A stretch of DNA of 32,000 bases from Halogeometricum borinquense DSM 11551 (GCF_000172995.2 NC_014735.1:150001-182000); one strand, 5' to 3'. Positions 8,323-32,000 are shown, numbered from the stretch's first letter. Program-made: numbers and translations. Notes: a model not told the origin generated them from the sequence alone.

Positions 8323-8360
8323 CGGCGATTGCCCACGTCAAATGCTGTTACTCATATCCT

Positions 8361-11991: not shown

Positions 11992-11997
11992 CACATC

Positions 11998-13046: not shown

Positions 13047-13062
13047 CAAAGACTGTTAAGAC

Positions 13063-13852: not shown

Positions 13853-13928
13853 ACATTCCAAGATAATGTTCACTACCCTATAATAGTTATGAGAAAACAA
13901 ATAATTCTGACACTTCTGCAATCAGAGA

Positions 13929-14351: not shown

Positions 14352-14523
14352 GTTGTGAATAATAACACCAAATATCTGGAGATAACTAAGTGTGTCGGCT
14401 CTAGGGATCTGTTGAATTATTCAGACAATCGACGTATGCGTCGTGGACATCTATAATTAGATCCCAACTACTTTGTCTGAACCAAGCTACAAAAGCTGTC
14501 TGTAGGTGAGGATAAGATCCGAT

Positions 14524-15748: not shown

Positions 15749-15771
15749 GCCACTAATTCACTTCTTCTATC

Positions 15772-15780
15772 ATATAAATA
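15772..15780 (-). promoter_or_regulatory. TATA-box candidate for the gene at 15110-15748 (leaderless spacing)
   Basis: Plus-strand 'ATATAAATA' (minus-strand TATTTATAT) is centred ~28 nt upstream of the ATG at 15748. Confidence 0.45.
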
Positions 15781-15793
15781 CACATACATTATA

Positions 15794-15819
15794 GTGTAAC
15801 AACCATACCTTTGTTACAC
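15794..15819. promoter_or_regulatory. perfect 9-bp inverted repeat GTGTAACAA-N8-TTGTTACAC in the divergent intergenic region
   Basis: Read directly at 15794-15802 and 15811-15819. It lies between the gene at 15110-15748 and cetZ. The geometry suits a dimeric transcription-factor operator. Confidence 0.4.
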
Positions 15820-15984
15820 CAATCTTGCGGCAATGTATCTGCTATGAGAACATGTCTCTCTCAGTACATAGTTTGTGCGATGATCGATAGCTGACGCACG
15901 TCTCGAAAAATCAGAGACGACAGGCTAAGAACTCGGCTGAAGTGCCGGACAAATTCAGAAGATTGAACAGAGCACCTGGTATAT

Positions 15985-17172
15985 ATGTCATCCATGCGTC
16001 TCGTGTTGCTCGGTATCGGTCAGGCCGGTGGGAAGATTGTTGACCGGTTTCTCGAATATGAACGACAGACCGAGCAGGACTTCATCGAAGGAGCAGTCGC
16101 GTTCAACACTGCACGCGCTGATCTCAAAGAACTGTCTCACGTTCCTGAACACCATCGCCAGCTATTCGGGGAGGTTGATGCCAAAGGCCACGGCGTCGGT
16201 GCGGACACTGAGTTCGCCGCCGACCTCGCTGAGCAAGACGCACAACAACTCATCCGGTCGCTAGACGATATCCCGACCTCTCGGGCCGATGCGTTCCTCG
16301 TCGTCGCGGGATTGGGCGGTGGAACGGGGAGCGGTGCCGCTCCGGTACTCGCCAACGAACTCGACCGAATCTACGAAAAACCCGTCTACGGACTCGGAGT
16401 TCTCCCCGCTTCCGAGGAAGAGGATGTCTTCGCGTACAACGCCGTCCGGTCGTTCCGGACACTTGTCAATCACGTTGATAACCTCCTCTTGTTCGACAAC
16501 GATACGTGGCTCAAATCCGGCGAGGAAGTCACGGAAGCGCACGACCGTCTCAACGGCGAATTAGTCCGTCGGCTTTCGGTGCTATTCAACGCGGGCGAAG
16601 TTACCGACGAGAACGTGGTCGCCGAGAGCGTCATCGATTCGAGCGAAATCATCAACACGCTCCGTGGCGGTGGCGTTTCGACGATTGGCCACGCATCGAG
16701 TACGCTGCCAACCGACGACTCGTCGGGCTTCAGCCTCGGTAACCTGTTTGGCTCGTCTGACAACGAACCCGACGAAATCGAGGCGATGAATCGAATCACC
16801 ACTGCGGCACGGAAAGCGACGCGCGGACGGCTGACGCTTCCCTGTGACGTCTCGAGTTCTCAACGAGCGCTCGTGGTTACGAGTGGTCCGCCCCAGTGGC
16901 TGAGTCGAAAAGGTATCGAGCAGAGCAGACAGTGGATCGAAGAGGAGACCGAAAGCATGGAGATTCGTGGCGGTGACGACCCGCGCTCCGATTCAGACCG
17001 GGTTTCGGTGACAGTGCTGTTCGCTGGCGTGACGGACATCCCTCGAATCGAACAGTTGCGAGAACGGGCGCTTAAAGCGGCCGAGTCGAGTGGTGACTCC
17101 GACGACCTCTCGGAGACGGAACTCGATGATTTCGCTGATAGTTCAGTCGATGGCTCGGATCTGAAGCGCTAA
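15985..17172 (+). CDS. cetZ: CetZ, archaeal tubulin/FtsZ-superfamily cell-shape protein
   Basis: N-terminal LLGIGQAGGKIVDRF, tubulin signature GLGGGTGSGAAPVLA, and DNLLLFDNDTW with NAGEV closely follow the recalled Haloferax CetZ1 pattern rather than FtsZ. An alternative start is the ATG at 15994 (MRLVLLGIGQAGG). Confidence 0.9.
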   Translation: MSSMRLVLLGIGQAGGKIVDRFLEYERQTEQDFIEGAVAFNTARADLKELSHVPEHHRQLFGEVDAKGHGVGADTEFAADLAEQDAQQLIRSLDDIPTSRADAFLVVAGLGGGTGSGAAPVLANELDRIYEKPVYGLGVLPASEEEDVFAYNAVRSFRTLVNHVDNLLLFDNDTWLKSGEEVTEAHDRLNGELVRRLSVLFNAGEVTDENVVAESVIDSSEIINTLRGGGVSTIGHASSTLPTDDSSGFSLGNLFGSSDNEPDEIEAMNRITTAARKATRGRLTLPCDVSSSQRALVVTSGPPQWLSRKGIEQSRQWIEEETESMEIRGGDDPRSDSDRVSVTVLFAGVTDIPRIEQLRERALKAAESSGDSDDLSETELDDFADSSVDGSDLKR

Positions 17173-17193: not shown

Positions 17194-18210
17194 TTACTGG
17201 GGTGCGCTCACGTTCACCCAGAGGTGATTCTCACGGTATGCGTTGTCTATCGTCGGATTCTCTGGGGCTGATCCTTTGTAGAGCAGATAGGTGAGTCTGA
17301 GTCGGTCACCGGTCATCGAAGGTGAGACTGTCGTTTTCGTCGACCACGTACTGTTCGCCCCGACTGTTTGCGTGTATCGGTGTAACTCGGTTCGCTCCCG
17401 TACTACCGTTGCGTTATTCTGCCTTTCGACGCGATGGAGTTGTGCTACTACGGTGTACTGCACTTCTCGCCCTTCGTGGTTTCCGATGCCGATGTGCAGT
17501 GGCTTTGCCTCGCCGCGGATGAACTCCGTCGGATATTCGTCGGCTACCAAGTCGCCTGACTCGTCTTCGGTGAGCAAGTACAACTCGGAGAACTGCTCTC
17601 CCGGCGGTGGCACGAAAATTGCATATCCGGTACTCCCGGCGGCGAGAAGGATGCTGACTACCAGCAACACGTTCAGTGCTGCATCCGCCCGCGAGTCTGG
17701 CGCAAACAGTTCCGCTTTCGCGTCGGTGATCCAGCGCTCGTACGGGACGACGAACCGATCGGTTTCGTTGAGCGCCTGACGACGGCGTGATGCGACGAAT
17801 GTGAGGATGACTGTGAACGCGCTGACGATGGCCACGATGGGGATGAGGCGCATTCCCCACGGAGTGAAATTGAGTAGTAGGCCGATTAGCGGGACGACAG
17901 CGATGCTGAGACCGAACGAGAGCGCAACCCGCTCGATGCCGTCGATGCCACTTTCGATCTCCGTCTCGTTGTCGTCCATCCTTGTGGAGCGCTCGGCTGC
18001 TTCGGGAAAGAGCGCGGCAACGAGCGCGTATCCGGGGATGAACAACAGATACGGGAGGCCGAGGATGATTCGAATCGGCGTCCCCTTGATGACAGGAATA
18101 GTCGCCGCTGCGACCGTCAAGACGACGAGTACGAGGACTGCCCCGAGGTCTGCCGGGAGAGTTCGGAGTGGCCTCGGGAGGAGGAGCCGCCAATCCATGT
18201 CTCGACTCAT
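17194..18210 (-). CDS. DUF1616-family membrane protein
   Basis: The N-terminal segment is PADLGAVLVLVVLTVAAATIPVIKGTPIRIILGLPYLLFIPGYALVAALFPE. It has four or five TM helices and then a soluble beta-rich C-terminal domain, the typical DUF1616 layout. Confidence 0.7.
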   Translation of the reverse strand: MSRDMDWRLLLPRPLRTLPADLGAVLVLVVLTVAAATIPVIKGTPIRIILGLPYLLFIPGYALVAALFPEAAERSTRMDDNETEIESGIDGIERVALSFGLSIAVVPLIGLLLNFTPWGMRLIPIVAIVSAFTVILTFVASRRRQALNETDRFVVPYERWITDAKAELFAPDSRADAALNVLLVVSILLAAGSTGYAIFVPPPGEQFSELYLLTEDESGDLVADEYPTEFIRGEAKPLHIGIGNHEGREVQYTVVAQLHRVERQNNATVVRERTELHRYTQTVGANSTWSTKTTVSPSMTGDRLRLTYLLYKGSAPENPTIDNAYRENHLWVNVSAPQ

Positions 18211-18235: not shown

Positions 18236-20446
18236 CTAAAATTGGTCGGTCTGATCGACTACCTGCTGTGCAACTTCGAGCAGCTCCAAAGCGCGGTCTC
18301 TCTGCACTGGCTCAGGTGCGTACGCCGCTTGCTCGTAGGCACTCGTGAGTTCGGTGAATATGGCGCTCACGTCTTCGGACGCCTCCGCCCGGACGTGCTC
18401 TAACAGTTCCCAGTGCGTCAGCGATTTTTCAACGCCGAGCGAGTCGGTCATCTTGGTCCGTATCGTCTCGTAGGTTGCAATGACCGCCTCGTCGGTCGCA
18501 CCGCGCGCTAACTGTGGTTCGACGACCGCAGCCAGTTCGGCATCCACCGCAGCAGATTCAGTGGCGTCTGCCGTGGCGGTTGTCGTGATCTCTTCTGTCT
18601 CTGCTGCGGCTATCTCAGACGACACGCTCTGTTTCTGATCGCGTTTCCGACTCAGCAGGTCGAGTATGCGTGTCGGAAGCAACTCGAGCGCTTCAGCCGC
18701 TACGATTCCGCTCGTCCCTAACACAGCCAGCAGGCCGACGATTGCGATGAACCCAGTCGGTGCGTTCCACCACGACGTTCCTGTTCCTGTGTGCTCACCG
18801 CTCGGAACAGTCAATTCGACTGCGTCGGTACTGGGTTCGAGATTTCCACCGTTCGGATCGTAGGCCGCTGTGACAGTGACAGAACCGTTCGCTTCTTCGA
18901 GGCCGATTGTCGATTGAACCATCCCACGTGCGTCCGTCGAGAGCGTCTTAACCGTCGTTCCGCCGACTCGAATCTGTATCTGTTGGCTACTGACTGGCTG
19001 TCCAGAGTCAGTCGTGAGTTGCCCGCTGATCTGCGCGGCCGAGTTCGTAACGTTCGTCGCTGACAGCGAGAGATTCGTCTCCGTTGACCGGATTTGAACG
19101 GCCGTTCGGTTCTGCGCGCTACTGATCGCTCGGTCGGTGAGTGCAACCGCCGCATTCGCTGTTTGCGTTCCGACCGCGAGACTGGCGGGAACGGGGAGTG
19201 GTACGCTGAAGGTTCCGTTTGCCGTCGTCGTGACCGTTCTGGACCGCTCTCCGAGCGAGACACGGACGGGGACGTTTGCCACGTCGCGTCCGGCGGCACT
19301 AACTCGGCCAGTAAACCGAACTATCTCCCCGTATCGGGCGGTTTCATCCGACCGACTCACCGTCACGGAAGCGTTCGTCTGTCTCACCGAGAGACCGACG
19401 GTCGTCTCCGACCGGCCGTAAAGCGACGTTCGGGCTGGTCGGTACATAACGCGCACTCGGTCGCTATCGAGCGACAGCAACGTCGGTCGATAGACGAGGT
19501 CGAAACGGCCCTCAGCGTCGGTTTGAGTTCGTAACAGTTGCTCGCCAACCAAAACGTTAATCGCTCGATTTGCGACTGCCTTCGACTCATTTGTGGCCAG
19601 CCGTCCGTCTAATCGAGTCGGTGACCCGAAGCTAGCGGTCGTCCGATTCGCACTGATCTGTAACGTCGTTTCGACGAACTCCAACTCACGAATCTGCTCC
19701 GATGTCTCCGTCGTGTTTTCTACAACCACCTCGATGGTCTGGCTTCCTTCGTCGAGGTCGAGTGAAGTTCGATCCGTTAGCTGTTGGTACTGGCCTTGCA
19801 GTTGTCCGCCGGTTCGATTCACAGCGACCGCGTCGGCTACCAGTTCGCGCGCCAGGGATCGAGCTTTCGAGGTGTTACCGCTCTCACGCGCTCGCTCGTA
19901 CTTCGATTTGGTCTCGCGGAAGTCGTTGACTGCCTCAATGTAGGAACGCTGTTGGGTTCGCGTCTTGTTGAACTCCGCCAGCGTCTCTTCGCTGTCTCCA
20001 CGCTCACCGGACTCCTGAACGACTGTCGCGTACTTCGAGGCCCAGTCCGGGTATGATTCATCGAGCCGAGAGCACGCAACGCGCTCTGCCACTCGGGTCT
20101 GTTCTGTACAGTCGATGAGCGTTTCTGAGATTCGCCCGGAGAGCCATTCTCGAATCGTGGATAGGTCTCCGCTGCCGGACGCGCTATCCGGGTTGGCGTG
20201 CTGTATCGTGGAGTTGTTCGAAGTCGTCGGCGCGTCTGTCGGTGTTGCGACCTGACTCACGCTCGGCGCGGGAGCCGGGGCTGGACCGCCAGTTGAGACT
20301 CCCGCGACCCCGCCGACCGGTGCGACGACAAGGCAGAACGCGATGAGGCCGATTGCGACTGATGCAGCACCCCCCTTGAGTGTCACTGTTGGTGAATACG
20401 CGAAGCGGATCGTAAAACATCTTGCGCACTCTCGTTCGGATGCCAT
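18236..20446 (-). CDS. large membrane-anchored surface protein with Ig-like (carboxypeptidase-regulatory-like) repeats and a cytoplasmic C-terminal DUF4129-like domain
   Basis: The start at 20446 (MASERE...) or a GTG at ~20385 is preferred over the listed 20524, which would overlap the divergent DUF58 gene. Order of elements: N-terminal TM, an Ala/Pro/Thr linker, three repeats of the form G.L.T..G.PV....I.V......T.TDA.G.F, a TM (GFIAIVGLLAVLGTSGIVAA), then ...SLTHWELLEHVRAEASEDVSAIFTELTSAYEQAAYAPEPV. Confidence 0.7.
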   Translation of the reverse strand: MASERECARCFTIRFAYSPTVTLKGGAASVAIGLIAFCLVVAPVGGVAGVSTGGPAPAPAPSVSQVATPTDAPTTSNNSTIQHANPDSASGSGDLSTIREWLSGRISETLIDCTEQTRVAERVACSRLDESYPDWASKYATVVQESGERGDSEETLAEFNKTRTQQRSYIEAVNDFRETKSKYERARESGNTSKARSLARELVADAVAVNRTGGQLQGQYQQLTDRTSLDLDEGSQTIEVVVENTTETSEQIRELEFVETTLQISANRTTASFGSPTRLDGRLATNESKAVANRAINVLVGEQLLRTQTDAEGRFDLVYRPTLLSLDSDRVRVMYRPARTSLYGRSETTVGLSVRQTNASVTVSRSDETARYGEIVRFTGRVSAAGRDVANVPVRVSLGERSRTVTTTANGTFSVPLPVPASLAVGTQTANAAVALTDRAISSAQNRTAVQIRSTETNLSLSATNVTNSAAQISGQLTTDSGQPVSSQQIQIRVGGTTVKTLSTDARGMVQSTIGLEEANGSVTVTAAYDPNGGNLEPSTDAVELTVPSGEHTGTGTSWWNAPTGFIAIVGLLAVLGTSGIVAAEALELLPTRILDLLSRKRDQKQSVSSEIAAAETEEITTTATADATESAAVDAELAAVVEPQLARGATDEAVIATYETIRTKMTDSLGVEKSLTHWELLEHVRAEASEDVSAIFTELTSAYEQAAYAPEPVQRDRALELLEVAQQVVDQTDQF

Positions 20447-20511
20447 CTGTCGTCGTCGGTTAACTCGAACGGGCACACTTTTGTGCTCCAGACCGAAGTG
20501 ACCACAGACAG

Positions 20512-21954
20512 ATGCGGCCGACAAACCGGTTTTGGGGCGCGGTGGGTACAGGCGGACTGCTCTGCGTACTCGCTGGCATTTTTGCCGATCCGCTCTTGCT
20601 CGGCGCTGCTGCGCTCATCGCTGGAACTGTTCTCATGAGTCAGTACCGGTTCACGAATGAACTACTGACTGTCTCGAGTGCGATGTCGGTCGAACAACAC
20701 CTCTCGCGCACCCACGTACTCACCGACGAACCGGTTCTGTTAACTCTTCGCGCGGATCTCCCGGTGGAAACACTGCTCGATGTCACTATCTCACCGTCAC
20801 TGCCGCTCATCGCAACGTCTGTCTCTCCGGATGAACGGACGGTATCTGTCGCGGACGGGCAGGTGACACGGCAGTCGTACCAACTGACCGTCCCGACGGC
20901 TGGTGTTGCACGGTTTTCCCCACCGGAGGTGACCGTGACTGGCCCAGCCGGATGCTTCGAGGAGACGTTCTCGGTCGCAGTCGAAGAAACGCTGACCGTT
21001 GAACCACGAGCACCGCGCCGAATTCACGTCGGACAGGGCGGAAACAGGGTTTCGACTAGTTTCGGCGAACACGAGTCCGGGCAGCGTGGGTCCGGTCTGG
21101 AACCCGCCGAGATACGGCGGTACGTCTACGGAGACGACATCAGCCGGATCGATTGGAAGGCGACGGCACGACTCAACCATCCCCACATCCGTGATTACGA
21201 GATGCCGACCGTACGGCAGACAGCACTCATCGTCGATCATCGGGCATCGACGGCGGACGGGACGCCCGGCGAGACAAAGCTCGATTTCCTGCGGGAGATT
21301 GCGCTCGCGTTCGTCAACAGCGCGGATTCGTTGGACGACCCTATCGGTCTCTACACTGTCGGTGACGAGGGAACGACGAATACGGCACCACCGAGAGCGA
21401 GCGAAAGGCAGTATCGGTCGATTCGTTCGACGCTTCGTAATCTGGAACCGACGACTGGTGAGAGCGGGGCCGCTGACGCAAAACCGGGACAAGCGGCGAT
21501 ATCGCGCCGCACTGCAACAACTCTCTCCGAGGATAACACCGCATTTGGGGAGACGCTTCGACCGTATTTCGGTGCGACCAACCGATACGCCGACCGATTT
21601 GCTGACCGACCACTGTTTTCGACGACGCAATCCCGTCTCGGCCGGTTGCAGGGTGCCGTGTGGAGTGTCGTGCTGACTGACGATACGAATCGGAGCGAAC
21701 TGTACGAATCGATCAAAGCCGTGCGTCGAACTGAGGGCCGCGTCCTCGTGTTTATCACGCCGTCGGCACTGTTCGATTCCACACTGGGCAATATCGAGGC
21801 AGCCTACGCCGAATACCGTGAGTTCGAGTCGTTCCGCAAGCGCCTCAACAAACTCGACGGCGTTACCGCGTTCGAGGTCGCTCACGAAACCAGACTGGAA
21901 TCGATCCGGCAGTCAGGGCCGAGCAGTCAGCGACGCTCGGAGGGGTGGGGCTGA
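20512..21954 (+). CDS. DUF58 domain protein (VWA-like partner of MoxR ATPases)
   Basis: Two N-terminal TM helices are followed by the family signature EIRRYVYGDDISRIDWKATARLNHPHIRDYE. A MoxR gene lies in the same cluster. Confidence 0.85.
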   Translation: MRPTNRFWGAVGTGGLLCVLAGIFADPLLLGAAALIAGTVLMSQYRFTNELLTVSSAMSVEQHLSRTHVLTDEPVLLTLRADLPVETLLDVTISPSLPLIATSVSPDERTVSVADGQVTRQSYQLTVPTAGVARFSPPEVTVTGPAGCFEETFSVAVEETLTVEPRAPRRIHVGQGGNRVSTSFGEHESGQRGSGLEPAEIRRYVYGDDISRIDWKATARLNHPHIRDYEMPTVRQTALIVDHRASTADGTPGETKLDFLREIALAFVNSADSLDDPIGLYTVGDEGTTNTAPPRASERQYRSIRSTLRNLEPTTGESGAADAKPGQAAISRRTATTLSEDNTAFGETLRPYFGATNRYADRFADRPLFSTTQSRLGRLQGAVWSVVLTDDTNRSELYESIKAVRRTEGRVLVFITPSALFDSTLGNIEAAYAEYREFESFRKRLNKLDGVTAFEVAHETRLESIRQSGPSSQRRSEGWG

Positions 21955-22427: not shown

Positions 22428-23335
22428 GTTCGGTGACCGAAACGGATGTGGACGACGAGTCTCCGCTGCACGATGAGTCGCCGGCCGACCGTGAGACGCT
22501 TCGTGGACGAATCGAGGTGTTGCGTGAGGAGAATCGACGACTCCGTGAGGAATATCTCCGCGCTCGGCAGGCGCAGTACCGGCGGACCGCAATCGGAATG
22601 GCCGCTATCGGCTTGTGTGCGTTGGCGGGGGCGGCAGTCCTCCCTGCGTTGCGGACGACGCTATTAGTCCTCGCAGGCACTGGCGGGTTCGGTGCGAGTC
22701 TGCTGTACTACCTCACGCCCGACCAACTTGTTCCCGTATCGGTCGGTCAGTCGGTGTTTACCGCACACGACCGGCACGCCTCCAGTCTGGTCGATGAACT
22801 CGGACTGCAGGATACGACGGTGTATGTTCCACGTGTCCGTGACCAAGAAGCGGTCTCGCCGGAGCAGATACGCCTTTTTATTCCGCAAGCGCGCGGGTGG
22901 GAGCTTCCATCAGATGACGCGTTGGCCGCGACGTTCGTCGAACCTGACGATGAGATGCGGCGGGGGATCTCGCTCGAACCGACTGGCGTCTCGCTGCTCT
23001 CGGAGTTTGCAGACGCGGCAAACACGAACCCTTCTGAGCCTGCTGATCTCGCCGACCAACTCTGCGAAGCCGTCGTCGAGCAGTTCGAACTCTCGACGTA
23101 CGCCGATGCGGAAGTCGATACCGCGACGAACCGCGTATCGGTCCGGGCGGGTCACTCGGCGTACGGCGAGTTGACGGCGTTCGACCATCCACTCGTGTCA
23201 GTCATCGGCGTGGGACTGGCTCGGGGACTCGGCGCGTCCGTCGAAACTGAGTCGGTCGAATCAGTCGATTCCGACGAGTACCTCATCTCGTACCGCTACC
23301 GGACGATTGACTCGGCTTCGACAAAACAGGGCTAA
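22424..23335 (+). CDS. hypothetical membrane protein with an N-terminal acidic/coiled-coil segment
   Basis: 303 aa. LRGRIEVLREENRRLREEYLRARQAQ (coiled coil) is followed by two TM helices and an acidic soluble domain. It is translationally coupled to the upstream gene. Confidence 0.65.
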   Translation: MSSVTETDVDDESPLHDESPADRETLRGRIEVLREENRRLREEYLRARQAQYRRTAIGMAAIGLCALAGAAVLPALRTTLLVLAGTGGFGASLLYYLTPDQLVPVSVGQSVFTAHDRHASSLVDELGLQDTTVYVPRVRDQEAVSPEQIRLFIPQARGWELPSDDALAATFVEPDDEMRRGISLEPTGVSLLSEFADAANTNPSEPADLADQLCEAVVEQFELSTYADAEVDTATNRVSVRAGHSAYGELTAFDHPLVSVIGVGLARGLGASVETESVESVDSDEYLISYRYRTIDSASTKQG

Positions 23336-24336
23336 TCCTTCTGTTTGGTACGGCCGCCATCACCGACTGCGGGAGCTTGTGCGGTCACGTCGCCCCGACT
23401 CGGCGGCGTCGTCGTGTCTAAGATGCCTTCGATGATTGCTTCGGGTTCGACGTCACCAATTTCGGCGTCGGTGCTGAGCACGAGACGGTGTGCGAGCGCC
23501 GACACCGCGAGTGTCTTCACGTCGTCAGGGATTACGTAGTGTCGGCCTTCGATTGCCGCGTGGGCTTTGGCCGCCTGTAGCAGGTGGAGGCTCCCACGCG
23601 GAGAGATTCCGTGACTCACGTCGGGCGTCTCTTGGGTTCCTTCGGCAATATCGAGAACGTAATCGCGGACTGGCTCGGCGACGTGGACGTTTTTGACCTT
23701 GGTGCGGGCCGAGGCGATGTCTTCAGCAGAGAGTACTTGTTCGAGATCGTCGGGGCCGAGATTCGGTTCGTAATTAAATCGGTCAAGGATCTCGGCCTGT
23801 TTGTCCCGGGAGGGAATGTCGATGGCGATCTTGAACTGGAAGCGATCACGCTGGGCTTCGGGGAGACCGAACGTCCCCTCCATCTCGATTGGGTTCTGCG
23901 TGGCGACCACCATGAACGGTGTCGGCAGGTTGAGTGTCTCGCCCTCGATTGTGACCTGCGTCTCCTGCATCGCTTCGAGCAGTGCGCTCTGCGTTTTCGG
24001 CGTCGCGCGGTTAATCTCGTCCGCGATGACGAGATTCGAGAACACGGGTCCGCGTTCTAACTCAAAAGCGCCGGTGTCCTCGCGGTATATTTTCGTCCCC
24101 GTAATGTCTGCGGGGAGTAAGTCCGGCGTCATCTGGATCCGTCGTCCTTGCAGTCCAGTCGTTTGGGCGAATGCGGCGGCTAACGTCGTCTTCGCGACGC
24201 CGGGGACACCTTCGAGAAGTAAGTGGCTCTGCGTGAGAAGTGAGATTGTGAGCCGCTTGAGGGCGTCCTCCTGCCCAATGAGAACTCGCGCCGCCTCCGT
24301 CTGGAGGGTTGAGTAAAGCTCCGCTGGGTCAGTCAT
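23332..24336 (-). CDS. MoxR-family AAA+ ATPase
   Basis: Walker A GVPGVAKTT, Walker B VIADEINRATPKTQSALLEAM, sensor region ATQNPIEMEGTFGLPEAQRDRF. The 334-aa length is typical. Confidence 0.93.
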   Translation of the reverse strand: MTDPAELYSTLQTEAARVLIGQEDALKRLTISLLTQSHLLLEGVPGVAKTTLAAAFAQTTGLQGRRIQMTPDLLPADITGTKIYREDTGAFELERGPVFSNLVIADEINRATPKTQSALLEAMQETQVTIEGETLNLPTPFMVVATQNPIEMEGTFGLPEAQRDRFQFKIAIDIPSRDKQAEILDRFNYEPNLGPDDLEQVLSAEDIASARTKVKNVHVAEPVRDYVLDIAEGTQETPDVSHGISPRGSLHLLQAAKAHAAIEGRHYVIPDDVKTLAVSALAHRLVLSTDAEIGDVEPEAIIEGILDTTTPPSRGDVTAQAPAVGDGGRTKQKD

Positions 24337-25381
24337 CTTCTGATAAATTGGTCTCTTCTGGCATAACTCCTGTCATTACACGGCCTAGCTCCGTCTCGTC
24401 CCAGTCGGGGTGCTGGGACGCAAGATATGCTCTCAGCGCATCTGCGTCTACTGGTGTCGACTCCGTTTTGCGGTCGAACACGCCAACGAGTTGCCGTGGT
24501 CGGAACACGATGACACCAACGAGTATGAGCGCTATCGCACCAAATCCAACTTGTGCGATTGGTGTGCGTTGAAGCCAGAGTACGAACCCGGCGAGCGGAG
24601 GTATCTGCTCTGTGTGGCTATAGTCGGCGACGACCCGGTCGTGTGATTCGAGAAGTCCAGTCACGAAGGCACGATTCCCCTCGCGTTCGAGCATTGCGTT
24701 GATGAACATCGAGGGGTCGCTGACGACGACTATCGTGCCGTCGCCAACGGACTCCTGCGTGGCGATGGGGCGCGATCCCAACGCCTCGCTATCATCGAGT
24801 TGGTAGTTTCGGTTGCTATCGACATAGGAGAACTCAGAACTCCGTGCAAGCACGGTTGTACCGTTCGCACGGAGCGCGCTTCCGTGGTTAAGCGTCAGCG
24901 TCTGGTCCGTGTTGAGGAACGTTGCGTTCGGTGTGGTGGTCGCCTCGCTAAAGTTCGGCGTCGTGGCGTACTGCTGTTCATCACGGAGCAGACGACCGTC
25001 GATGCGAACGTCGGAGTCGAGCGCTGAAAGAAGGGGGTTCGTATGCGGCCCGAAGTCGTCGGCAACGACGACCGTTCCGCCCTGTTCGACGAACTCCCGG
25101 ACTCGTTGTGCTTCCGCGCGTGTGTAAGCTTGATCTGGTGACAGAATGATCGAGACGGTATTGTTCGGCTCTCGGTACGCCGTTTCGAGTTCGGTCGCCA
25201 CGCTAAATGTGGCTCCAGTCTCCGATGCGACCGGTTGTACGTCCGCCGCACCGTTCCACGCTGAGTTGTACGCGCTGAACGATGCTGAACTGGTCGCCGC
25301 ACCGATGCCGAGACTCAGGACGACGACCACCGCGAGTCCGATGACGGCGATTCGGGCGTACTGCCCGATGCGATCAGCCAT
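24329..25381 (-). CDS. DUF4350-like membrane-anchored protein (MoxR-cluster component)
   Basis: The ATG at 25381 (MADRIGQYARIAVIGLAVVVVL...) lies 2 nt after the upstream gene's stop and is preferred over the listed 25486. It has an N-terminal TM, a segment VSIILSPDQAYTRAEAQRVREFVEQGGTVVVADDFG, and a C-terminal TM. It overlaps the MoxR start by 8 nt. Confidence 0.65.
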   Translation of the reverse strand: MADRIGQYARIAVIGLAVVVVLSLGIGAATSSASFSAYNSAWNGAADVQPVASETGATFSVATELETAYREPNNTVSIILSPDQAYTRAEAQRVREFVEQGGTVVVADDFGPHTNPLLSALDSDVRIDGRLLRDEQQYATTPNFSEATTTPNATFLNTDQTLTLNHGSALRANGTTVLARSSEFSYVDSNRNYQLDDSEALGSRPIATQESVGDGTIVVVSDPSMFINAMLEREGNRAFVTGLLESHDRVVADYSHTEQIPPLAGFVLWLQRTPIAQVGFGAIALILVGVIVFRPRQLVGVFDRKTESTPVDADALRAYLASQHPDWDETELGRVMTGVMPEETNLSEDD

Positions 25382-25383
25382 CG

Positions 25384-25659
25384 TTACAGCACCCCCGGCG
25401 GAAGGATTTCGAGGATTCGTTGGACGACCACGTACGCGAATCCGATCAGCCCGGCGAGAATTATCCACCGGAGTCGTCGCCGCCACCGCGGCGTGATCCG
25501 GAAGGGTGCAGTGAGTTCGACGTTGACCAGAAACGCGATCAGCGAGACGACGAAGAACAGTTCGAGAGAAAGACTCTCAAGAAGCGTCAGTACGACTGCG
25601 ACGGCGAGCATCGAAGCGACTTGCGCGTGGACAAACTGGTGCCGCTTCGAGAGTGGCAT
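25384..25659 (-). CDS. small membrane protein (91 aa, about three TM helices), first gene of the DUF4350-MoxR operon
   Basis: The ORF is hydrophobic with an RWRRRLRW loop and sits tightly against the downstream gene. Confidence 0.55.
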   Translation of the reverse strand: MPLSKRHQFVHAQVASMLAVAVVLTLLESLSLELFFVVSLIAFLVNVELTAPFRITPRWRRRLRWIILAGLIGFAYVVVQRILEILPPGVL

Positions 25660-26194: not shown

Positions 26195-26383
26195 TTGTTT
26201 TGGTATTACAATACTGACGTATCAAATTTTCCGTCGGGGTACTTAACTAGCAACACCGAATTCATCGTCCGTAGGACATCACTGAATATTCTGACGACGC
26301 CGGGGAGACCCATTCTCTGTCTCGGTTTGGTTATTCTTTGAAAACATTCTGAAAAATAACATCGGGTTAACATATTCCGAAGT

Positions 26384-26413: not shown

Positions 26414-29400
26414 ATGAGGCTCGGGAATAGCAACCGCACCAAACTGATAAGTCTGGTGCTAGTGGGAGTCGTGGTCTTCTCCACAGTCGTCGGACCTGTG
26501 TCCGCGGCTTCCGCGTTGTCAGGTGAACAGGATTCTACTCACAGTGTCGCCGTTCCGGGGAGTGGAACGGCGCCGCTTTCCGTGAGTGATGATCTCAAGA
26601 TAAATGCGACAGAGAATATCTCAGTCTGGCAGTATAGTCTGTTGCCGCTACGAGCGCAGACATTTAGTACGCCAGATGTGTCCGACGTTCAGAAACCCGC
26701 ACACTCGATTGAGAGTACTTCTGTGAGGATTAAGACGGGAGACCTATCCACATCGCTGGATAAACAACAGTTCCACGTTTTCACACGCGGGGAACCGATC
26801 ACGTCGAAGTTCTTCCAAGACGGGTATCAGGACGTCATCGACGATGAGCGCGTTCAGACAGTCGCTATCCGACTGAAAGAGGGTGCCGAGAAACCCGATT
26901 CGATCGAGCATATCAGTCGATACATCACTGACAGCGAGAACACGCATGCTCGAATTATCAATGACACGACGGGTGAACCCGGTAAGAACTACTTCCGATT
27001 TACACCCCAGAAATCCGGTCAGTACGTCTTTGCAGTGGCGATAGTCGAGAACGGGAGCCAACCTGACCATCCCGGCCTCGTTCAGATTTCTGACGGTGAT
27101 CTCGAAGCCAAGAGCAACATTACCATTGTTGGCTTTAATCACTACATCGTGCGTGAGGGTGCGTCCTCGGTCAGTCATCAACCGGTCGCCGCTACCGGCA
27201 GCAATGTCTCGGTACACGTGGACGCCTCGCAGAACCTCAGCGCGTCCGACGTGTCTCATACCGTTCTCTTGCTCAACGAAACCGAAATCAGCGACCAAAG
27301 CCAGGAAATTCGAGTCAACGGGACGGAAATCGAGGCTATCGAATCTTCTGTCTCTGGTGTTGAAGGCGTCGTCGATATCGAGGATGGTACGAACATCCTC
27401 GGAAGCGAACTTCCCAAAGGCCAGTACAACGGAAATACGAACGTTATCTCGCTGCTCGAACGGCTGACTGATAATTCGACGAACGTCACTTCGACCGGCG
27501 ATACGACGCTGTACTCGTCGTTGACCAGTACCGTTGGTGGCCCGACGGAGACTGTCTCGCTGCAAACGAACGAGAATTTCTCGACCGGCGAGTACTCGAT
27601 TATTCACTTTGCAACGGCGCAGGACAGCACCGAAACCATCACGTCCGAAAGCACGATCAAACTCGTCGAAGGCGTCCAACTGAACCTCGCGGCGAACAAC
27701 ACGACGGTTCGGCAGGGGACGCCAGTCACGTTCACGGTGACCAACGAAGAGGATGAGCCGGTTGCCAACGCCAACGTGACCTACGCTGGCGAGACCTACA
27801 CGACGGGCGCTGACGGAACCGTGACGTTCTCCCCGAAGGAGTCCGCCACGGCAACCGTCAGTAAGGAACCGGTCGGTGACACGGCCTATATCGGTGACAG
27901 CGTCGCTCTCTCCGTTGTGGCTCCCGCGTTCGAGCTGACCGAGTTCGATCTCTCCACGACGGAACTGTCGAGCGACGAGACGCTGGTCGTCAACGGTACC
28001 GTTCAGAACGTCGGTGACTTCGAGGGCTACTTCACCTTCGAACTCAAGCGCGACGGACAGATCATCGACGAGCAGACGGTTCAGGTCGCTCCCGGGCAGA
28101 CCGCTGCTGCCTCCTTCGATGTGACGTTCGACCAGACCGGCCAGTTCGATATCGGTCTCAACAGTCTGGCTCCGAAGACGGTGACTGTCACTGGTATTCC
28201 GGACATCGAGTACTCCAACTTCGATGTCAGCTCGACCGACGTTGACCTCGGTGACAGTGTCACGGTGTCCGCGACCGTCGAAAACAACGGCTCCGGTCCG
28301 GGCGAATACAACGCCTCGTTCGTCAAGAACGGCGATATCACCGACTACCAGAACGGAACGCTCGGCGCTGGTGAGTCGAAGACCATCTCGTTCACCAAGA
28401 CGCTCGCGCCCGGCACGTACGACCTCGGAATTGCCGGACTCGGTCCCGCGACGGTGACCGTTAACGCACCGGCGAACCTCGAATACTCGAACTTCGAGGT
28501 GTCTCCGGATACCGTCGCACTGGGCGAGTCCATCACCGCGAACGCGACGGTCGAAAATACCGGTGGTCAGGCTGGCTCCTTCCTCGTCGCCTTCGCTGTC
28601 GATGACGAGGTTCTGGAGACGAGAAACGTCTCCTTGGACAGCGGCGAGACCACGAATGTCTCGTTCACCGCGGACAGTCTCGGTATCGGCGACCACACGG
28701 TTCGCATCGGCTCGCTCGATGCGAAGACCGTGACCGTCTCCGCTCCCGACCTCGCGGCGACCGTGACGAACACGCCGTCGGAGGTCTCTGAGGGCGTCGT
28801 TCCGGTCGAAGCGACGGTCTCGAACGTCGGGAACGCCGAGGTGACCGATGCGACGGTTGTCCTCGACGCACAGCCTGAAGGCGGGTCCAACTACACTCAA
28901 CTGACGAACGAGAGCGTGACGCTCTCGCCCGGCAGTTCGACGACGGTGACTGCTGAACTCACCCGTGCGGAAGCACGGAACTACACCGTTCGCGTCCGTG
29001 CCGATGCGGACGATCAGTTCACCGAACCGGACGAACAGAACAACATTGACGAACAGTTGGTCACTGGTGGTCCGCTTATCACCGGGACCATCAACACGTC
29101 TGACGGCGACGCGGCGGCCGACGACGTCGTGTACAGCTTCGTCCTCGACGGACTGAACGTGACCGCTGTGAACGGTGCCGTGACCAACGACAACGGGACG
29201 TTCTACGTCCCCGCGAACGCGACGACCGAACAGAACGTCGGCTACCGGCAGCTCAACCTCTCAGCTAGCCAAGCCGATGATCCGGTGTTCGAACGCGACG
29301 GTTCGCCGGACATCTACGCGCTGACGACGGTCCCCGCCGTGACGAACGTCTCGAACATCGGGACGTTCGACCTGCCGAACGCCGGTGTGCTGAACGTCAC

Positions 29401-32000
29401 GGTCGTAGACCAAGACGGCGACCCTGTCGAGGGAGCAACTGTCACTGTCGTCCATCGGAACAACGACGCGATCACGGGTATCACCGAATCGACGACGGCG
29501 CAAGGAACACCCATCTTCAGTGAAGGCGGTGAGACCGGCATCGAGGTTCGCGGTGATGTCGGTGTCATCGTCGAACCACCGGAAGAAGACCGGTTCTCTG
29601 AGGGTCCGTACACGCGCAACGTCACTGTCAGCGAGAACGGCAAAGATCTCGTCATCCATCTCGCCGAAGGCGCTGATCTGAAGCCCGACCTCGATATCGA
29701 GCGACAACAGCGCTTCGGCGACAACGTCACAGCGAACGTGACGGTCTCGAATGACGGTCTCGTGGATGTCGATAACGCAACTGTTGACCTCCGGATTCGG
29801 AGTGCATCCGGTGAGACGAAGACGCTCACCAAGCACACAGGCTTCGTCGCCAACCGGACCGACAGTGCGAACGAGACGGAACTCTCGTTCGACTTCACCG
29901 ACTTCGCTGAGGACAACCTGCTCGGCGACCTTGCGGACGGCAACGCCCGCGTGACGGTTATCGTTGACCCGAACAACGAAATCACCGAGACGGACGAAGG
30001 CAACAACATCGCAGTCAACTCGACGCTCGTCCGGTACGCTGACGCCGACGTTCGGGTCTTCGTCCCGAAAAACACGCTGGCCAGTACGCCCACCAACACG
30101 GTCGTATTCGTGAAGAACAACGGTACGGCACCGATTCTGAACGCGACGGCCGCGGTTGACTACGGTGATGGCAGTAACACGACGGTCGATCTGGGTCGTA
30201 TCAACGCCTCGCAGACCAACACCACGCGAGCGCCTCACACCTACAACAGTGGTGGCGATTACACGGTGACTGCGACGGTTGACGACGCAGTACCGTTCGA
30301 CAACAACGAGGCAGCGAAGACGATTGAGGTCAAAGCGTTCGATCTGAACCTCGACGCGGAGGACATCTCGGTCCCGACTGACGCGACGAACGGGACGACG
30401 TTCACCGCGACGGCACGGTTCCAGACGAACTACCCGACGACGGTGAATGCGACGCTCGAACTCCCGGACGGCCTCGAACTGGTCGCTTCGGAGAACGCGA
30501 GCAAAGATGTCCCAGCATCCGCTACCGGTGGGACCGCTGCGTGGAAGGTCCGAGTCAACACGACTGAGGATGTCTCCGACGCGCAGGTGAACGTCACGAC
30601 GAAGGCACACGGCCAAACGTCGTCGGCGAGCACCACTCTGAACCTCTCGGTGCCGAAGATCCGCCTCACGGACACCAACGCGACGACGCTTTCGTCGGGT
30701 TCGGACAACGTGACGGTTGATCTGTCCAGTGCGACGACCTACGACCACACGGTGAACGTCACCGTGCAGGCTGGTTCACAGGGACGGACCCTCGCAGGCC
30801 TCGAATATCTGTTCACCTACCCGTACGGGTGCGTCGAGCAGACGACGAGCCAGATGATGGGTGCGCTTCGGACGGACCAGTACTACCGCAGTGGCGACAT
30901 CCCGAACAACTACAACCGGCAACGGGCGAACGACACTATCGAAATCGGTGTCGAAAAGCTCGGCACGAACCAAGCGTCCTCGCTCATCTGGCCTGATCTC
31001 GCACAGAACGAGGACGGCTCTTGGAGCATGTACGGCGGCGCCTTCTACGACGAGGGCGACCTCTACTACACGACCGCCGCGCTGCAGGGCGTGACGTCGG
31101 TTGCAAACGACGAAGTGCAAGGGACCCGCGCTGAGGTCTCAGACGATATCCAGACGGTCAACGCAAGTCGTTCGATCGAGTGGCTCTCCGACCACCAGCG
31201 CGCTGATGGCTCCGTCCCCGCGACGGATTACTTCCTCCGCGACCAGTTCTCCTCGACGGGGTACACGATGGTCGCGTTCGACCGCGCAGAGCCACACCTC
31301 AACTCGAGTGCTACGCAGACCGCCGAGGACTTCCGCGTCGATGCGGCAGTCTTCCTCATCGAGAACCAGAACAGCGACGGTAGCTGGGCGAGCGACCGAA
31401 GTCAGTCCGACATCAGCCAGAAACCGCAGGCGACTGCACTCGCGCTCCGCGGCCTCGCAACGGTCAACGAGAGCGCTGCACTCCGTCAGCGTGTGAATCA
31501 ACAAACCGATACCGACCTGTCCACTGCCATCGATAACGGTTCGCAGTGGCTGATCGACAACCAGAACGCCGATGGCTCGTGGGACGCCTATCGGAACTCC
31601 TTCTTCTGGAGTTCTAACGGCGAAGTCACGCGGGCGACGGGTCACTCGATCCTTGCACTGAACGAGACGCAGGGCGTGACGACCCAAGGAACCTCGGACG
31701 CAGCCGACTCTGTCGAGGATGCCACCGACTACCTCGTTGGCGTCTACGACAGTGACGGCTCGTTCGGTAACACCCGTGCGACGGGTGTGGCAATCAACGC
31801 GCTGACCACCGCGGACCAGCGCGGTGTCACTCCGCAGACCGTCGATGTGACGGTTGGCGGCGTGACGAAGACCGCATCGGTCGATAGTTCGACGACGACC
31901 GATACGGTCACCTTCTCGACCAGTGAACTTCAGCAGTTCCGCGACGAGGGAACTGGTAAAATCGAGTTAGAGGCACAGAACTCCGACAGCCTCGTCGTCA
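26414..32000 (+). CDS. giant secreted CARDB/PKD-repeat protein with an alpha-2-macroglobulin-type thioester domain (3'-truncated by the window edge; at least 1,862 aa)
   Basis: I translated frame 2 by hand from the ATG at 26414 to nt 31999 and found no stop. Frame was checked at 27929, 30830, 31001 and 31982. Elements in order: Sec signal MRLGNSNRTKLISLVLVGVVVFSTVVGPVSA|AS; CARDB-like repeats (EYSNFDVSSTDVDLGDSVTVSATVENNGSG..., ...DPNNEITETDEGNN); a PKD-like motif VDYGDGSNTT...HTYNSGGDYTVTATVDD; then LEYLFTYPYGCVEQTTSQMMG and repeated DGSW motifs. The ORF is not in the supplied track, presumably because it has no stop in the window. Confidence 0.9.
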   Translation, partial: MRLGNSNRTKLISLVLVGVVVFSTVVGPVSAASALSGEQDSTHSVAVPGSGTAPLSVSDDLKINATENISVWQYSLLPLRAQTFSTPDVSDVQKPAHSIESTSVRIKTGDLSTSLDKQQFHVFTRGEPITSKFFQDGYQDVIDDERVQTVAIRLKEGAEKPDSIEHISRYITDSENTHARIINDTTGEPGKNYFRFTPQKSGQYVFAVAIVENGSQPDHPGLVQISDGDLEAKSNITIVGFNHYIVREGASSVSHQPVAATGSNVSVHVDASQNLSASDVSHTVLLLNETEISDQSQEIRVNGTEIEAIESSVSGVEGVVDIEDGTNILGSELPKGQYNGNTNVISLLERLTDNSTNVTSTGDTTLYSSLTSTVGGPTETVSLQTNENFSTGEYSIIHFATAQDSTETITSESTIKLVEGVQLNLAANNTTVRQGTPVTFTVTNEEDEPVANANVTYAGETYTTGADGTVTFSPKESATATVSKEPVGDTAYIGDSVALSVVAPAFELTEFDLSTTELSSDETLVVNGTVQNVGDFEGYFTFELKRDGQIIDEQTVQVAPGQTAAASFDVTFDQTGQFDIGLNSLAPKTVTVTGIPDIEYSNFDVSSTDVDLGDSVTVSATVENNGSGPGEYNASFVKNGDITDYQNGTLGAGESKTISFTKTLAPGTYDLGIAGLGPATVTVNAPANLEYSNFEVSPDTVALGESITANATVENTGGQAGSFLVAFAVDDEVLETRNVSLDSGETTNVSFTADSLGIGDHTVRIGSLDAKTVTVSAPDLAATVTNTPSEVSEGVVPVEATVSNVGNAEVTDATVVLDAQPEGGSNYTQLTNESVTLSPGSSTTVTAELTRAEARNYTVRVRADADDQFTEPDEQNNIDEQLVTGGPLITGTINTSDGDAAADDVVYSFVLDGLNVTAVNGAVTNDNGTFYVPANATTEQNVGYRQLNLSASQADDPVFERDGSPDIYALTTVPAVTNVSNIGTFDLPNAGVLNVTVVDQDGDPVEGATVTVVHRNNDAITGITESTTAQGTPIFSEGGETGIEVRGDVGVIVEPPEEDRFSEGPYTRNVTVSENGKDLVIHLAEGADLKPDLDIERQQRFGDNVTANVTVSNDGLVDVDNATVDLRIRSASGETKTLTKHTGFVANRTDSANETELSFDFTDFAEDNLLGDLADGNARVTVIVDPNNEITETDEGNNIAVNSTLVRYADADVRVFVPKNTLASTPTNTVVFVKNNGTAPILNATAAVDYGDGSNTTVDLGRINASQTNTTRAPHTYNSGGDYTVTATVDDAVPFDNNEAAKTIEVKAFDLNLDAEDISVPTDATNGTTFTATARFQTNYPTTVNATLELPDGLELVASENASKDVPASATGGTAAWKVRVNTTEDVSDAQVNVTTKAHGQTSSASTTLNLSVPKIRLTDTNATTLSSGSDNVTVDLSSATTYDHTVNVTVQAGSQGRTLAGLEYLFTYPYGCVEQTTSQMMGALRTDQYYRSGDIPNNYNRQRANDTIEIGVEKLGTNQASSLIWPDLAQNEDGSWSMYGGAFYDEGDLYYTTAALQGVTSVANDEVQGTRAEVSDDIQTVNASRSIEWLSDHQRADGSVPATDYFLRDQFSSTGYTMVAFDRAEPHLNSSATQTAEDFRVDAAVFLIENQNSDGSWASDRSQSDISQKPQATALALRGLATVNESAALRQRVNQQTDTDLSTAIDNGSQWLIDNQNADGSWDAYRNSFFWSSNGEVTRATGHSILALNETQGVTTQGTSDAADSVEDATDYLVGVYDSDGSFGNTRATGVAINALTTADQRGVTPQTVDVTVGGVTKTASVDSSTTTDTVTFSTSELQQFRDEGTGKIELEAQNSDSLVV
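30827..30841 (+). other. predicted thioester motif G-C-V-E-Q (Cys1473/Gln1476 of the giant ORF)
   Basis: Codons ggg tgc gtc gag cag at 30827-30841 lie in the context YPYGCVEQTTS. This matches the CxEQ thioester signature of A2M/complement-family proteins (GCGEQ in human A2M, CLEQ in E. coli ECAM). Confidence 0.7.

Follow-up and report, generated by a model that had tools for sequence, protein, structure and literature searches.

A complement/A2M-type thioester domain in a large exported protein of Halogeometricum borinquense

Thioester proteins play a central part both in the innate immunity of animals and in the defence of the bacterial envelope, and an archaeal branch bears on the origin of covalent-capture chemistry and on its role in cells that lack peptidoglycan. 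The locus described here raises the question of whether a haloarchaeal protein carries a true thioester domain (TED) of the alpha-2-macroglobulin (A2M) type, and, if so, whether it works as a protease trap or in some other way. The window, a 32,000-nucleotide stretch of the Halogeometricum borinquense DSM 11551 genome (NC_014735.1:150001-182000), ends within a long reading frame, for which an initial annotation had proposed an A2M-like thioester domain at 30740-32000, exposed on the cell surface. The gene and its export signal are:

26414..32000, plus strand: gene of the presumed thioester surface protein (frame open from 26360 to the window end, first ATG at 26414)
26414..26515, plus strand: predicted signal peptide of the Sec type, MRLGNSNRTKLISLVLVGVVVFSTVVGPVSAASA, identified by eye

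The gene (frame 2) has 1862 codons inside the window and encodes 1880 residues at full length. The C-terminus is ...SLVVIGVESVQVVNEDEHTENN, the remaining 18 codons lying beyond the window end, and was taken in full from P0013 and P0171. P0171 and the H. borinquense DSM 11551 protein ADQ68667.1 have the same sequence as the window protein. The protein is acidic (14% D+E versus 5% K+R) and rich in glycosylation sequons (59 N-x-S/T). Cys1473 is the sole cysteine in 1862 residues, and the one-cysteine state is also found in the Haloferax orthologues and in most halophilic relatives (1200-3400 residues). The Haloferax orthologues have the same N-terminus; inspection of the signal peptide sequence revealed neither a lipobox cysteine nor a twin arginine.

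The features of the thioester domain, all on the plus strand and the strings all in frame 2, are:

30800..31813, plus strand: TED, a 14-helix alpha/alpha toroid (aa 1463-1800; Pfam, family profile, AlphaFold, Foldseek)
30800..30868, plus strand: string LEYLFTYPYGCVEQTTSQMMGAL (aa 1463-1485)
30830..30841, plus strand: thioester motif C1473-V-E-Q1476 in YPYGCVEQTTS, invariant in alignments
31007..31039, plus strand: string NEDGSWSMYGG
31193..31225, plus strand: string HQRADGSVPAT
31361..31396, plus strand: string ENQNSDGSWASD
31556..31591, plus strand: string DNQNADGSWDAY
31745..31771, plus strand: string YDSDGSFGN

The thioester context and the five hairpin motifs on which the initial annotation was built were thus all recovered, and its numbering of Cys1473 and Gln1476 is right, counted from the ATG at 26414. 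Its boundaries were less exact. The start at 30740 falls within the beta strands that precede the TED, the helical domain spanning about 30800-31813, and the gene runs 18 codons past the window end.

The TED protein carries a genuine complement/A2M-type thioester domain, matched much better than chance would allow. The Pfam family TED_complement matched it with an E-value of 4.3e-10 and 39.6 bits (cut-off 22), and in relatives profile positions 16-310 of 312 were matched. A family profile built from 22 sequences and searched against the PDB identified A2ML1 (1.4e-16), CD109 (2.1e-16), C4 (5e-15), and human A2M (1.6e-12), as well as TEP1 and the bacterial A2M YfhM; the A2M-family matches cover profile positions 13-376, including the thioester segment. 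The AlphaFold model of the region (pLDDT 83.4, pTM 0.70) has 14 helices that fit the alpha/alpha toroid foreseen in the initial annotation, with all five DGS motifs in or beside a turn at a helix end. This model superposes on A2M and complement structures: all of its top 50 Foldseek matches belong to the A2M or complement family (C4b, E 2e-21; human A2M, E 5e-21), and the alignments are colinear over about 600 columns.

The cysteine, glutamate, and glutamine of the motif do not vary in two alignments, of 22 and 26 sequences; they occur in the Haloferax orthologues and in each of the full-length relatives that were inspected, and are kept in more than 60 divergent clusters of distant relatives. 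This invariance, together with the sole cysteine, argues for selection on the chemistry. No invariant or nearly invariant histidine was found in the aligned TED.

The toroid and its QxxDGSW repeats also recall squalene-hopene cyclases, to which the best raw profile E-value goes (3.5e-27), and the NCBI name of the Haloferax fragments is [quoted passage not shown]. That match is repeat-driven, however, and spans only profile positions 195-329, against 13-376 for the A2M family. An identity as squalene-hopene cyclase was rejected, because the weak match to SQHop_cyclase_C (18.9 bits) lies under its Pfam cut-off of 26.1, whereas TED_complement lies over its own; the cyclase-type model TIGR01787 likewise scored 24 bits against a cut-off of 322.7. 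The D-x-D-D motif was not found in aa 1440-1862, and no cyclase occurs among the top 50 Foldseek matches.

The TED is embedded in beta structure:

30380..30649, plus strand: beta-sandwich just ahead of the TED frame (aa 1323-1412; AlphaFold pLDDT >90 here)
30656..30772, plus strand: three beta strands ahead of the TED (aa 1415-1453; DSSP, model residues 136-174)
31835..32000, plus strand: beta strands after the TED, truncated by the window end (aa 1808 onward; DSSP, model residues 529-593)

DSSP analysis of the model gave three strands before the TED and five after it, followed by a terminal helix, and the protein stops about 80 residues after the TED. The flanking strands are presumed, from topology only, to be the two halves of a CUB-like sandwich that holds the inserted TED: their Foldseek alignments to CUB-TED-CUB proteins are colinear, and no CUB match was detected around the TED at the sequence level, even with a profile. 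By position, the preceding beta-sandwich would be the counterpart of MG7 in A2M, C3, and C4. The Foldseek alignments to C4b, A2M, and C3b pass colinearly through it, and sequence searches found no MG7/PF00207 match, even with a 20-sequence profile.

Further upstream, the chain consists of the following domains:

26516..27733, plus strand: N-terminal all-beta module of ~400 residues (local HMM search in relatives)
27947..29047, plus strand: CARDB-type Ig-like repeat array (Pfam CARDB)
29390..29506, plus strand: DUF7382/carboxypeptidase-regulatory-like beta-sandwich (Pfam fragment scan)
29885..30331, plus strand: two more CARDB/PKD-type Ig-like domains (CARDB 5.4e-5 and 1.5e-5; PKD_4 8.6e-5)

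The Pfam classes found N-terminal to the TED are CARDB, PKD, and DUF7382, not MG. CARDB matched the whole protein in six stretches (E 3.6e-28), and individual fragments gave matches at aa 512-580, 695-753, and 778-878. DUF7382 matched at 1.4e-6 (28.5 bits; cut-off 27.4), and the same region gave a CarboxypepD_reg match (2.7e-4) and a weak match to the bacterial A2M domain bMG3 (E 0.028). The N-terminal module is common to some relatives (P0014, P0027, P0029, P0033, P0044, P0046, and P0047 in a local HMM search), and has neither a Pfam family nor a PDB sequence match. Its AlphaFold model is weak (pLDDT 59.7, with the first ~87 residues below 50). The best Foldseek matches of this low-confidence model were the MG1-MG6 beta chains of CVF, C3, and C4 (E 1e-7 to 4e-6), followed by E. 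coli A2M (E 7e-5), at a TM of about 0.14; a resemblance to MG1-MG6 chains is therefore suggestive only.

The TED protein is not a canonical A2M. Whole-protein and fragment scans with Pfam, as well as profile searches, detected no MG, bait, or receptor-binding domain, and no match to A2M_BRD, A2M, or ANATO was seen in Pfam at E-values up to 1 or in the fragment scans; the chain may still contain a bait of divergent sequence. The C-terminal MG8/RBD/MG10 portion that would follow the TED is absent from the same chain. The A2M-likeness originally proposed thus holds for the TED and its beta-strand frame, which are the only demonstrably A2M-like part. The protein has no lipoprotein anchor. Genes near it encode a small lipoprotein-like ORF, DUF4350, MoxR, DUF58, DUF4129, DUF1616, and CetZ; neither PBP1C nor any other transglycosylase/transpeptidase was found among these neighbours.

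The next two genes after the TED gene lie beyond the window; their order was read from a sister strain and from Haloferax loci. The product of the first (gene 2) comprises a signal peptide, a macroglobulin-like domain, and a dockerin (Dockerin_1, E 1.7e-9 and 1.2e-12); that of the second (gene 3) comprises a signal peptide, probably a cohesin-like domain, and a PGF-CTERM lipid anchor (E 1.2e-7). In strain CP048739.1, gene 2 encodes 413 residues and overlaps the TED gene stop by 23 nt. The gene order is identical in Haloferax marisrubri, three other Haloferax loci likewise have a dockerin gene after the TED gene, and PGF-CTERM genes lie downstream in all Haloferax loci examined; in DSM 11551, ADQ68667 and ADQ68668 are neighbouring accessions, as would be expected if the order were the same there. 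The gene 2 part and the TED protein stand in a fusion/fission relationship, the 413-residue product being 32% identical (E 8e-33) to the fused region that follows the TED in the relative P0022, which also carries a Pfam Cohesin (3e-14) and a dockerin on one chain with the TED. The macroglobulin-like domain of gene 2 is a weak match (bMG10, E 0.02-0.09; PF00207 in 4 of 14 members, best 8e-4), with no significant match among PDB sequences. For gene 3, the connection with the fused cohesin would come from a single profile match, in which hhalign aligned its N-terminal domain with cohesin domains from the fused relatives (probability 73%, E 3e-5); searches for a cohesin identity by BLASTP and by profile against the PDB were negative. 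Relatives join this C-terminal core to heads of several kinds, among them subtilases, PQQ propellers, and cohesin, and this diversity argues against a fixed protease-trap design.

These findings suggest a split, surface-tethered covalent-capture complex of the TED protein and two partners. The TED protein lacks its own membrane anchor, and the surface exposure claimed in the initial annotation is therefore inferred from the neighbour genes outside the window. On balance, the protein is probably a secreted envelope protein, in which an Ig-like chain leads to a TED held in a CUB-like sandwich, and which serves covalent capture or adhesion at the cell surface in the manner of TEPs and complement, rather than as a caged protease trap of the canonical kind. 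Once the protein is exported, an internal beta-cysteinyl-gamma-glutamyl thioester would form between Cys1473 and Gln1476 and would stay shielded until a conformational trigger exposes the bond. The exposed thioester would then react with a nearby nucleophile and so tie the protein covalently to its target; as the TED has no conserved histidine, this nucleophile is probably an amine, the missing histidine being the sole basis for the assignment. Since relatives fuse the gene 2 part, and some also a Pfam cohesin, to the TED protein, a three-part assembly is likely, in which the TED protein would be joined to the MG-like/dockerin subunit and this subunit to the anchored protein with the cohesin-like domain. 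The MG-like subunit may take the place held by MG8/RBD/MG10 in A2M-family proteins. Split and fused dockerin/cohesin partners offer a concrete model for how the TED protein is held at the surface and possibly controlled. No trigger or bait for the TED protein was found. Shielding of a thioester without MG8 in the same chain counts against the capture-complex explanation.

A bolder, and unlikely, form of this idea is a split A2M-like machine composed of the thioester protein, an MG-like/dockerin subunit secreted on its own, and a cohesin protein with a lipid anchor. The detachable MG-like subunit would cover the thioester as MG8/RBD does, and its displacement, rather than bait cleavage, would arm the TED protein to tag foreign cells, viruses, or proteins covalently at the surface of the archaeon. 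If true, it would represent a modular, complement-like system in archaea.

It is also doubtful that the protein is a true protease trap like the bacterial A2Ms (ECAM/YfhM, SaA2M), in which cleavage of a bait by an attacking protease would lead to collapse around that protease and its cross-linking through the thioester, shielding the S-layer and envelope from foreign proteases. Haloarchaea secrete abundant subtilisin-like halolysins, and the TED is homologous to those of bacterial and human A2M. The absence of the catalytic histidine fits A2M-type amine reactivity, as known from A2M and C4A in contrast to C3 and C4B. The long N-terminal beta-sandwich chain, whose model is nearest to the C3/C4/CVF MG1-6 chains and E. 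coli A2M, points the same way, but this model is of low confidence; one relative has a borderline MG2 match (32.6 bits against a cut-off of 32.8), whereas no bait-region, MG, or receptor-binding Pfam domain was detected in the window protein itself. MG8/RBD in the same chain, a lipoprotein anchor, and a PBP1C partner are missing as well, and the fusion of the same TED core to subtilase domains and other unrelated heads is hard to square with a conserved cage.

Very unlikely is a toroid that forms no thioester, whether it acts only as a scaffold or in non-covalent binding or is left over from a terpenoid-cyclase or prenyltransferase fold: although C5 and some other eukaryotic family members lack the thioester, and the repeats do resemble those of cyclases, the motif is invariant across the divergent clusters, no second cysteine occurs in the protein, and the cyclase matches fail as described above.

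The surface-capture protein favoured here belongs to a family that sequence analysis brought to light in 2021, when Makarova, Wolf, Karamycheva, and Koonin (Front Microbiol 12:721392; PMC8416519) reported A2M homologues from archaea in which the TED has its CxEQ motif intact, so the initial annotation overestimated the novelty of the domain. Their exemplar was WP_050459478.1 of Haloferax gibbonsii ARA6, and they also described a signal peptide, architectures that vary, and a conserved gene downstream (arCOG14565), and placed the archaeal A2M genes in conflict-associated neighbourhoods. The WP_081457886.1 row in their Supplementary Figure S1C matches the window sequence (…ENASKDVPASATGGTAA…, RQRANDTIEIGVEKL…AQNEDGS…); the protein was therefore already known from sequence analysis, the same domain assignment was reached independently, and there is no difference in kind between that family and the protein described here. 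What is added here is the structural model with its fold search, the single-cysteine observation, the assignment of the downstream gene as that of a dockerin protein, homologous to the part that follows the TED in fused relatives, and a third gene with PGF-CTERM that is probably cohesin-like. The words dockerin, cohesin, and PGF are absent from the main text of PMC8416519. A literature search found no published biochemistry on any archaeal member. Halogeometricum and Haloferax are culturable.

Among known systems, the bacterial A2Ms (ECAM/YfhM and SaA2M; PDB 4u48, 4ziu, 4rtd, and 5a42) have a homologous TED with CxEQ (profile E about 3e-11); like the TED protein, they are large, exported, and rich in beta-sandwich domains, and have no catalytic histidine. 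They have Pfam-recognisable MG domains, a bait-region domain, a C-terminal MG10, and a lipoprotein anchor, and PBP1C is commonly encoded next to them. These hallmarks were not found in the TED protein, an MG-like domain being present only in the next gene, as a weak match.

The eukaryotic TEPs (C3/C4, A2M, A2ML1, CD109, and TEP1) are the best structural matches (Foldseek E 2e-21 to 1e-17), and are colinear with the TED protein through the beta-sandwich, the first half of the TED frame, the TED, and the second half of the frame. The family profile aligns across the whole TED of A2M and C4, and the Q-x-x-DGSWSMYG of the TED protein resembles HYDGSYSTFG of A2M. The TED protein differs in having no anaphylatoxin, C345C, or RBD/MG8 in its chain; the conserved catalytic histidine of C3, C4B, and TEP1 is missing from the archaeal TED, which, unlike that of eukaryotic TEPs, retains strong QW-like QxxDGSW repeats. 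The helical-hairpin fold class and the QxxDGxW repeat are common to the TED and to squalene-hopene cyclases and prenyltransferases.

The partner genes recall the cohesin-dockerin system of cellulosomes, in the Dockerin_1 domain of gene 2 and in the Cohesin and Dockerin on the TED chain of fused relatives. Here, however, there are no glycoside hydrolases, the anchor is a PGF-CTERM (archaeosortase) signal, and the domain of gene 3 is cohesin-like at the 73% level of hhalign. The TIE adhesins of Gram-positive bacteria (Cpa, SfbI) are unrelated in fold and family (Pfam PF08341, to which the TED protein has no match). These proteins bind their targets covalently through an internal Cys-Gln thioester, and the principle proposed for the TED protein, a Cys-Gln thioester at the cell surface that would bond covalently to a target, is the same.

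The window closes with a single 5.6-kb open reading frame on the + strand, which has no stop codon between 26360 and the end of the window and has its first ATG at 26414; a GTG five codons upstream of this ATG is a less likely start. The full thioester protein comprises 1880 amino acids, of which the last 18 are cut off by the window end, and is identical to ADQ68667.1 of H. borinquense DSM 11551, encoded on a 362-kb contig labeled a plasmid in the record; the window DNA itself had no match in the plasmid collection. All peptides quoted in the initial annotation are present in this translation, and its residue numbers for Cys1473 and Gln1476 are correct. The translated N-terminus is a typical predicted Sec signal peptide. 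The protein is acidic (14% D+E versus 5% K+R), carries 59 N-x-S/T sequons, and contains one cysteine in its entire length, Cys1473. The chain ends about 80 residues past the thioester domain (TED, aa 1463-1800), with neither a transmembrane segment nor a PGF-CTERM. Public gene calls begin downstream of ATG 26414 (window 26414-26500), giving 1852 aa (from an internal GTG) or 1777 aa (RefSeq), and therefore lose the signal peptide supplied by that ATG; Logan-derived calls take ATG 26414 and give 1880 aa. The public names are "CARDB domain-containing protein" or "cell adhesion protein".

Pfam searches of the thioester protein identified six CARDB stretches and a TED_complement match (E 4.3e-10; 39.6 bits, cut-off 22). 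PDB searches with the single sequence gave weak matches, and NCBIfam returned cyclase families alone, far below threshold. A family profile, built from 22 sequences and searched against the PDB, matched A2ML1 (1.4e-16), human A2M (positions 13-376, 1.6e-12), bacterial A2M/YfhM (3e-11), and C4 (profile positions 29-375), as well as CD109, cobra venom factor, and TEP1.

The last 601 residues were modeled with AlphaFold; the C-terminus was taken, in full, from a strain variant of 98% identity, and 25 homologues were included (mean pLDDT 83.4, pTM 0.70). From N to C, the model begins with a beta-sandwich and continues with three strands, then 14 helices, a further five strands, and a short helix. 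The top 50 Foldseek matches in the PDB were, without exception, C4b, A2M, A2ML1, CD109, C3b, C5, or TEP1, with E-values down to 2e-21 and alignments of about 600-650 columns that span nearly the whole query; the TM-scores of about 0.4 are expected if rigid superposition is limited to the helical domain. A squalene-cyclase/prenyltransferase identity was rejected. Squalene-hopene cyclase gave the best summed E-value with the family profile, yet only over positions 195-329, through repeated QxxDGSW units; the SQHop_cyclase_C match in Pfam lies below cut-off, the DxDD motif is absent from the thioester protein, and the top 50 Foldseek matches all belong to the A2M/complement family. A Gram-positive TIE-type thioester domain was also rejected, as the protein has no Pfam match to it. 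The QxxDGSW turns of archaeal TEDs (window 31007-31771) are strongly regular and score higher against the QW repeats of squalene-hopene cyclase than against animal TEDs, which accounts for the Haloferax fragments being named [quoted passage not shown] at NCBI.

A word-indexed protein search returned two close relatives only and missed most of the family, so that an exhaustive search was needed; the latter recovered 295 cluster representatives (E <=1e-3), including 46 with E-values below 1e-30. CVEQ is kept in the orthologues of Haloferax marisrubri, H. gibbonsii, H. prahovense, H. profundi, and Haloferax sp. Q22 (about 51% identity), and in a Methanoculleus formosensis relative (32% identity). 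Every full-length relative inspected carries [YF]P[YHN]xCxEQ, and the Cys, Glu, and Gln of CxEQ are invariant across the alignments. In most halophilic members (1200-3400 aa), the motif cysteine is the sole cysteine. The initial annotation had proposed an A2M-type thioester domain, to be checked by HMM searches, structure prediction, and Cys/Gln conservation in haloarchaeal homologues; Pfam, the family profile, the predicted model, Foldseek, and the conserved C, E, and Q all support that proposal. The same alignments contain no conserved histidine anywhere in the TED; mapping of the C3/C4B catalytic-His position was given up because the alignment is ambiguous in that loop. C4A and A2M differ from C3 and C4B in thioester reactivity, and, by analogy with this established contrast, the lack of a conserved TED histidine points to direct attack by amines.

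Fragment scans of the remainder of the thioester protein revealed the following domains:

aa 512-878, CARDB repeats
aa 993-1031, DUF7382/carboxypeptidase-regulatory-like domain
aa 1158-1306, CARDB/PKD domains

The first ~400 residues past the signal peptide form an N-terminal module that recurs in some relatives and has no Pfam or PDB sequence match. Its AlphaFold model is poor (pLDDT 59.7), and the best fold matches, to MG1-MG6 of CVF, C3, and C4 and to E. coli A2M, hint at a possible resemblance to those macroglobulin (MG) chains. Sequence searches, including those with profiles, did not detect a bait region, an MG7, an MG8/RBD, or an anaphylatoxin domain, and a 20-sequence profile of the pre-TED sandwich gave no PDB or Pfam support for an MG7 identity.

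Two genes follow the thioester gene beyond the window end, and were read in the chromosome of a sister H. borinquense strain (CP048739.1, 97-98% identical) and in Haloferax loci. Gene 2 (413 aa) overlaps the thioester-gene stop by 23 nt; its product has a signal peptide and carries Dockerin_1 (E 1.7e-9). The macroglobulin-type matches of the N-terminal domain of this product are weak (bMG10, 0.02-0.09; PF00207 in 4 of 14 family members) and fall short of sequence proof of MG8/MG10. Gene 3 encodes a signal peptide and an N-domain, followed by acidic linkers, Thr/Pro linkers, and a PGF-CTERM anchor. In P0022, a relative of the thioester protein, Cohesin, PKD, CARDB, TED, and Dockerin (Pfam) lie on one chain, and the gene 2 product matches the post-TED extension of such relatives (32% identity, E 8e-33). 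The gene 2 part is a separate gene in some genomes and fused to the TED protein in others. When the gene 3 N-domain was compared by hhalign with the cohesins of fused relatives, a match of moderate support (73% probability) emerged; neither BLASTP against P0022 nor a profile search of the PDB identified it as a cohesin. In other archaea (relatives P0015, P0034, P0016, P0020, and P0022), the CARDB-TED C-terminal core is fused to varied N-terminal heads, including subtilase (Peptidase_S8, E 6e-49 and 3e-57), InhA-like MAM, PQQ propellers, MG2/filamin, and cohesin; some of these relatives end in a dockerin, and some combine a protease and a TED on one chain.

The archaeal A2M homologues were described by Makarova et al. 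2021 (PMC8416519) as 27 proteins from 24 genomes, mainly of Halobacteria and Methanomicrobia, with signal peptides, variable architectures, Ig domains, and a TED whose CxEQ motif is intact; the gene downstream is conserved (arCOG14565), and a regulator (arCOG02808) is associated with them. The sequence of the thioester protein is present in Supplementary Figure S1C of that paper (row WP_081457886.1); hence, sequence analysis had already revealed both the family and this member. Dockerin, cohesin, and PGF-CTERM are not mentioned in its main text, which is extended in a small way by the comparison of split and fused partners and by the finding of a single cysteine. We found no experimental work on any archaeal member in the literature. 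The system is attractive and offers an easy experimental test, but will not surprise a specialist.

Upstream of the thioester gene, the window encodes a small lipoprotein-like ORF and the following genes, the last four of which form a cluster:

15985-17172 (+), CetZ tubulin-like gene (CetZ_C E 1.2e-68)
17194-18210 (minus), adjoining DUF1616 membrane protein gene (E 1.2e-123)
18236-20524 (minus), 762-aa exported/membrane protein with DUF4129 and a marginal match to Macroglobulin MG4 (27.5 bits, cut-off 24.7)
20512-21954, DUF58
23332-24336, MoxR
24329-25486, DUF4350

The initial annotation had named PBP1C as the usual neighbor of bacterial A2Ms; none of these upstream genes resembles it. In CP048739.1, the intergenic region on the promoter side of the thioester gene is interrupted at window 26249-26256 by a 3.3-kb insertion (L080 6481-9752), which contains a transposase of the IS240 family and an ORF of 210 aa and lies between flanks 97-98% identical to the window. 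Farther upstream, window 8000-16000 is a low-GC island (43-46%, versus about 59-61% elsewhere), containing:

8361-9149 (minus), FilR1/HVO_A0261-type regulator
10009-12900, ABC-2 permease and ATPase pairs (a further pair, 6479-8322, lies just upstream)
13310-15748 (minus), several ORFs with no Pfam match

The island, more than 10 kb from the thioester gene, may be related to the regulator/peptide-transporter genes of the loci in PMC8416519. An ABC uptake operon (solute-binding protein, two permeases, ATPase; 153-3668) and a PQQ-like beta-propeller protein (4424-5665) are unrelated to the thioester protein.

A non-covalent or relic domain is unlikely, because C, E, and Q are invariant. A canonical protease trap is also improbable: bait or cage elements are not detectable, and the heads that relatives join to the TED core differ widely, proteases included. 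For these two reasons, a complement/TEP-like tagging or adhesion role was ranked above trapping, and we lean toward a secreted protein that captures its targets covalently, in the manner of A2M, complement, and TEPs. In such a protein, Cys1473 and Gln1476 would form a thioester, shielded until triggered and reacting preferentially with amines, and attachment to the cell might be provided by the MG-like/dockerin subunit together with the PGF-CTERM protein and its cohesin-like domain. The thioester protein does not count as a canonical A2M: membership of the canonical bacterial A2Ms was rejected, as the searches detected neither MG, bait, or MG10 domains nor a lipobox or PBP1C.
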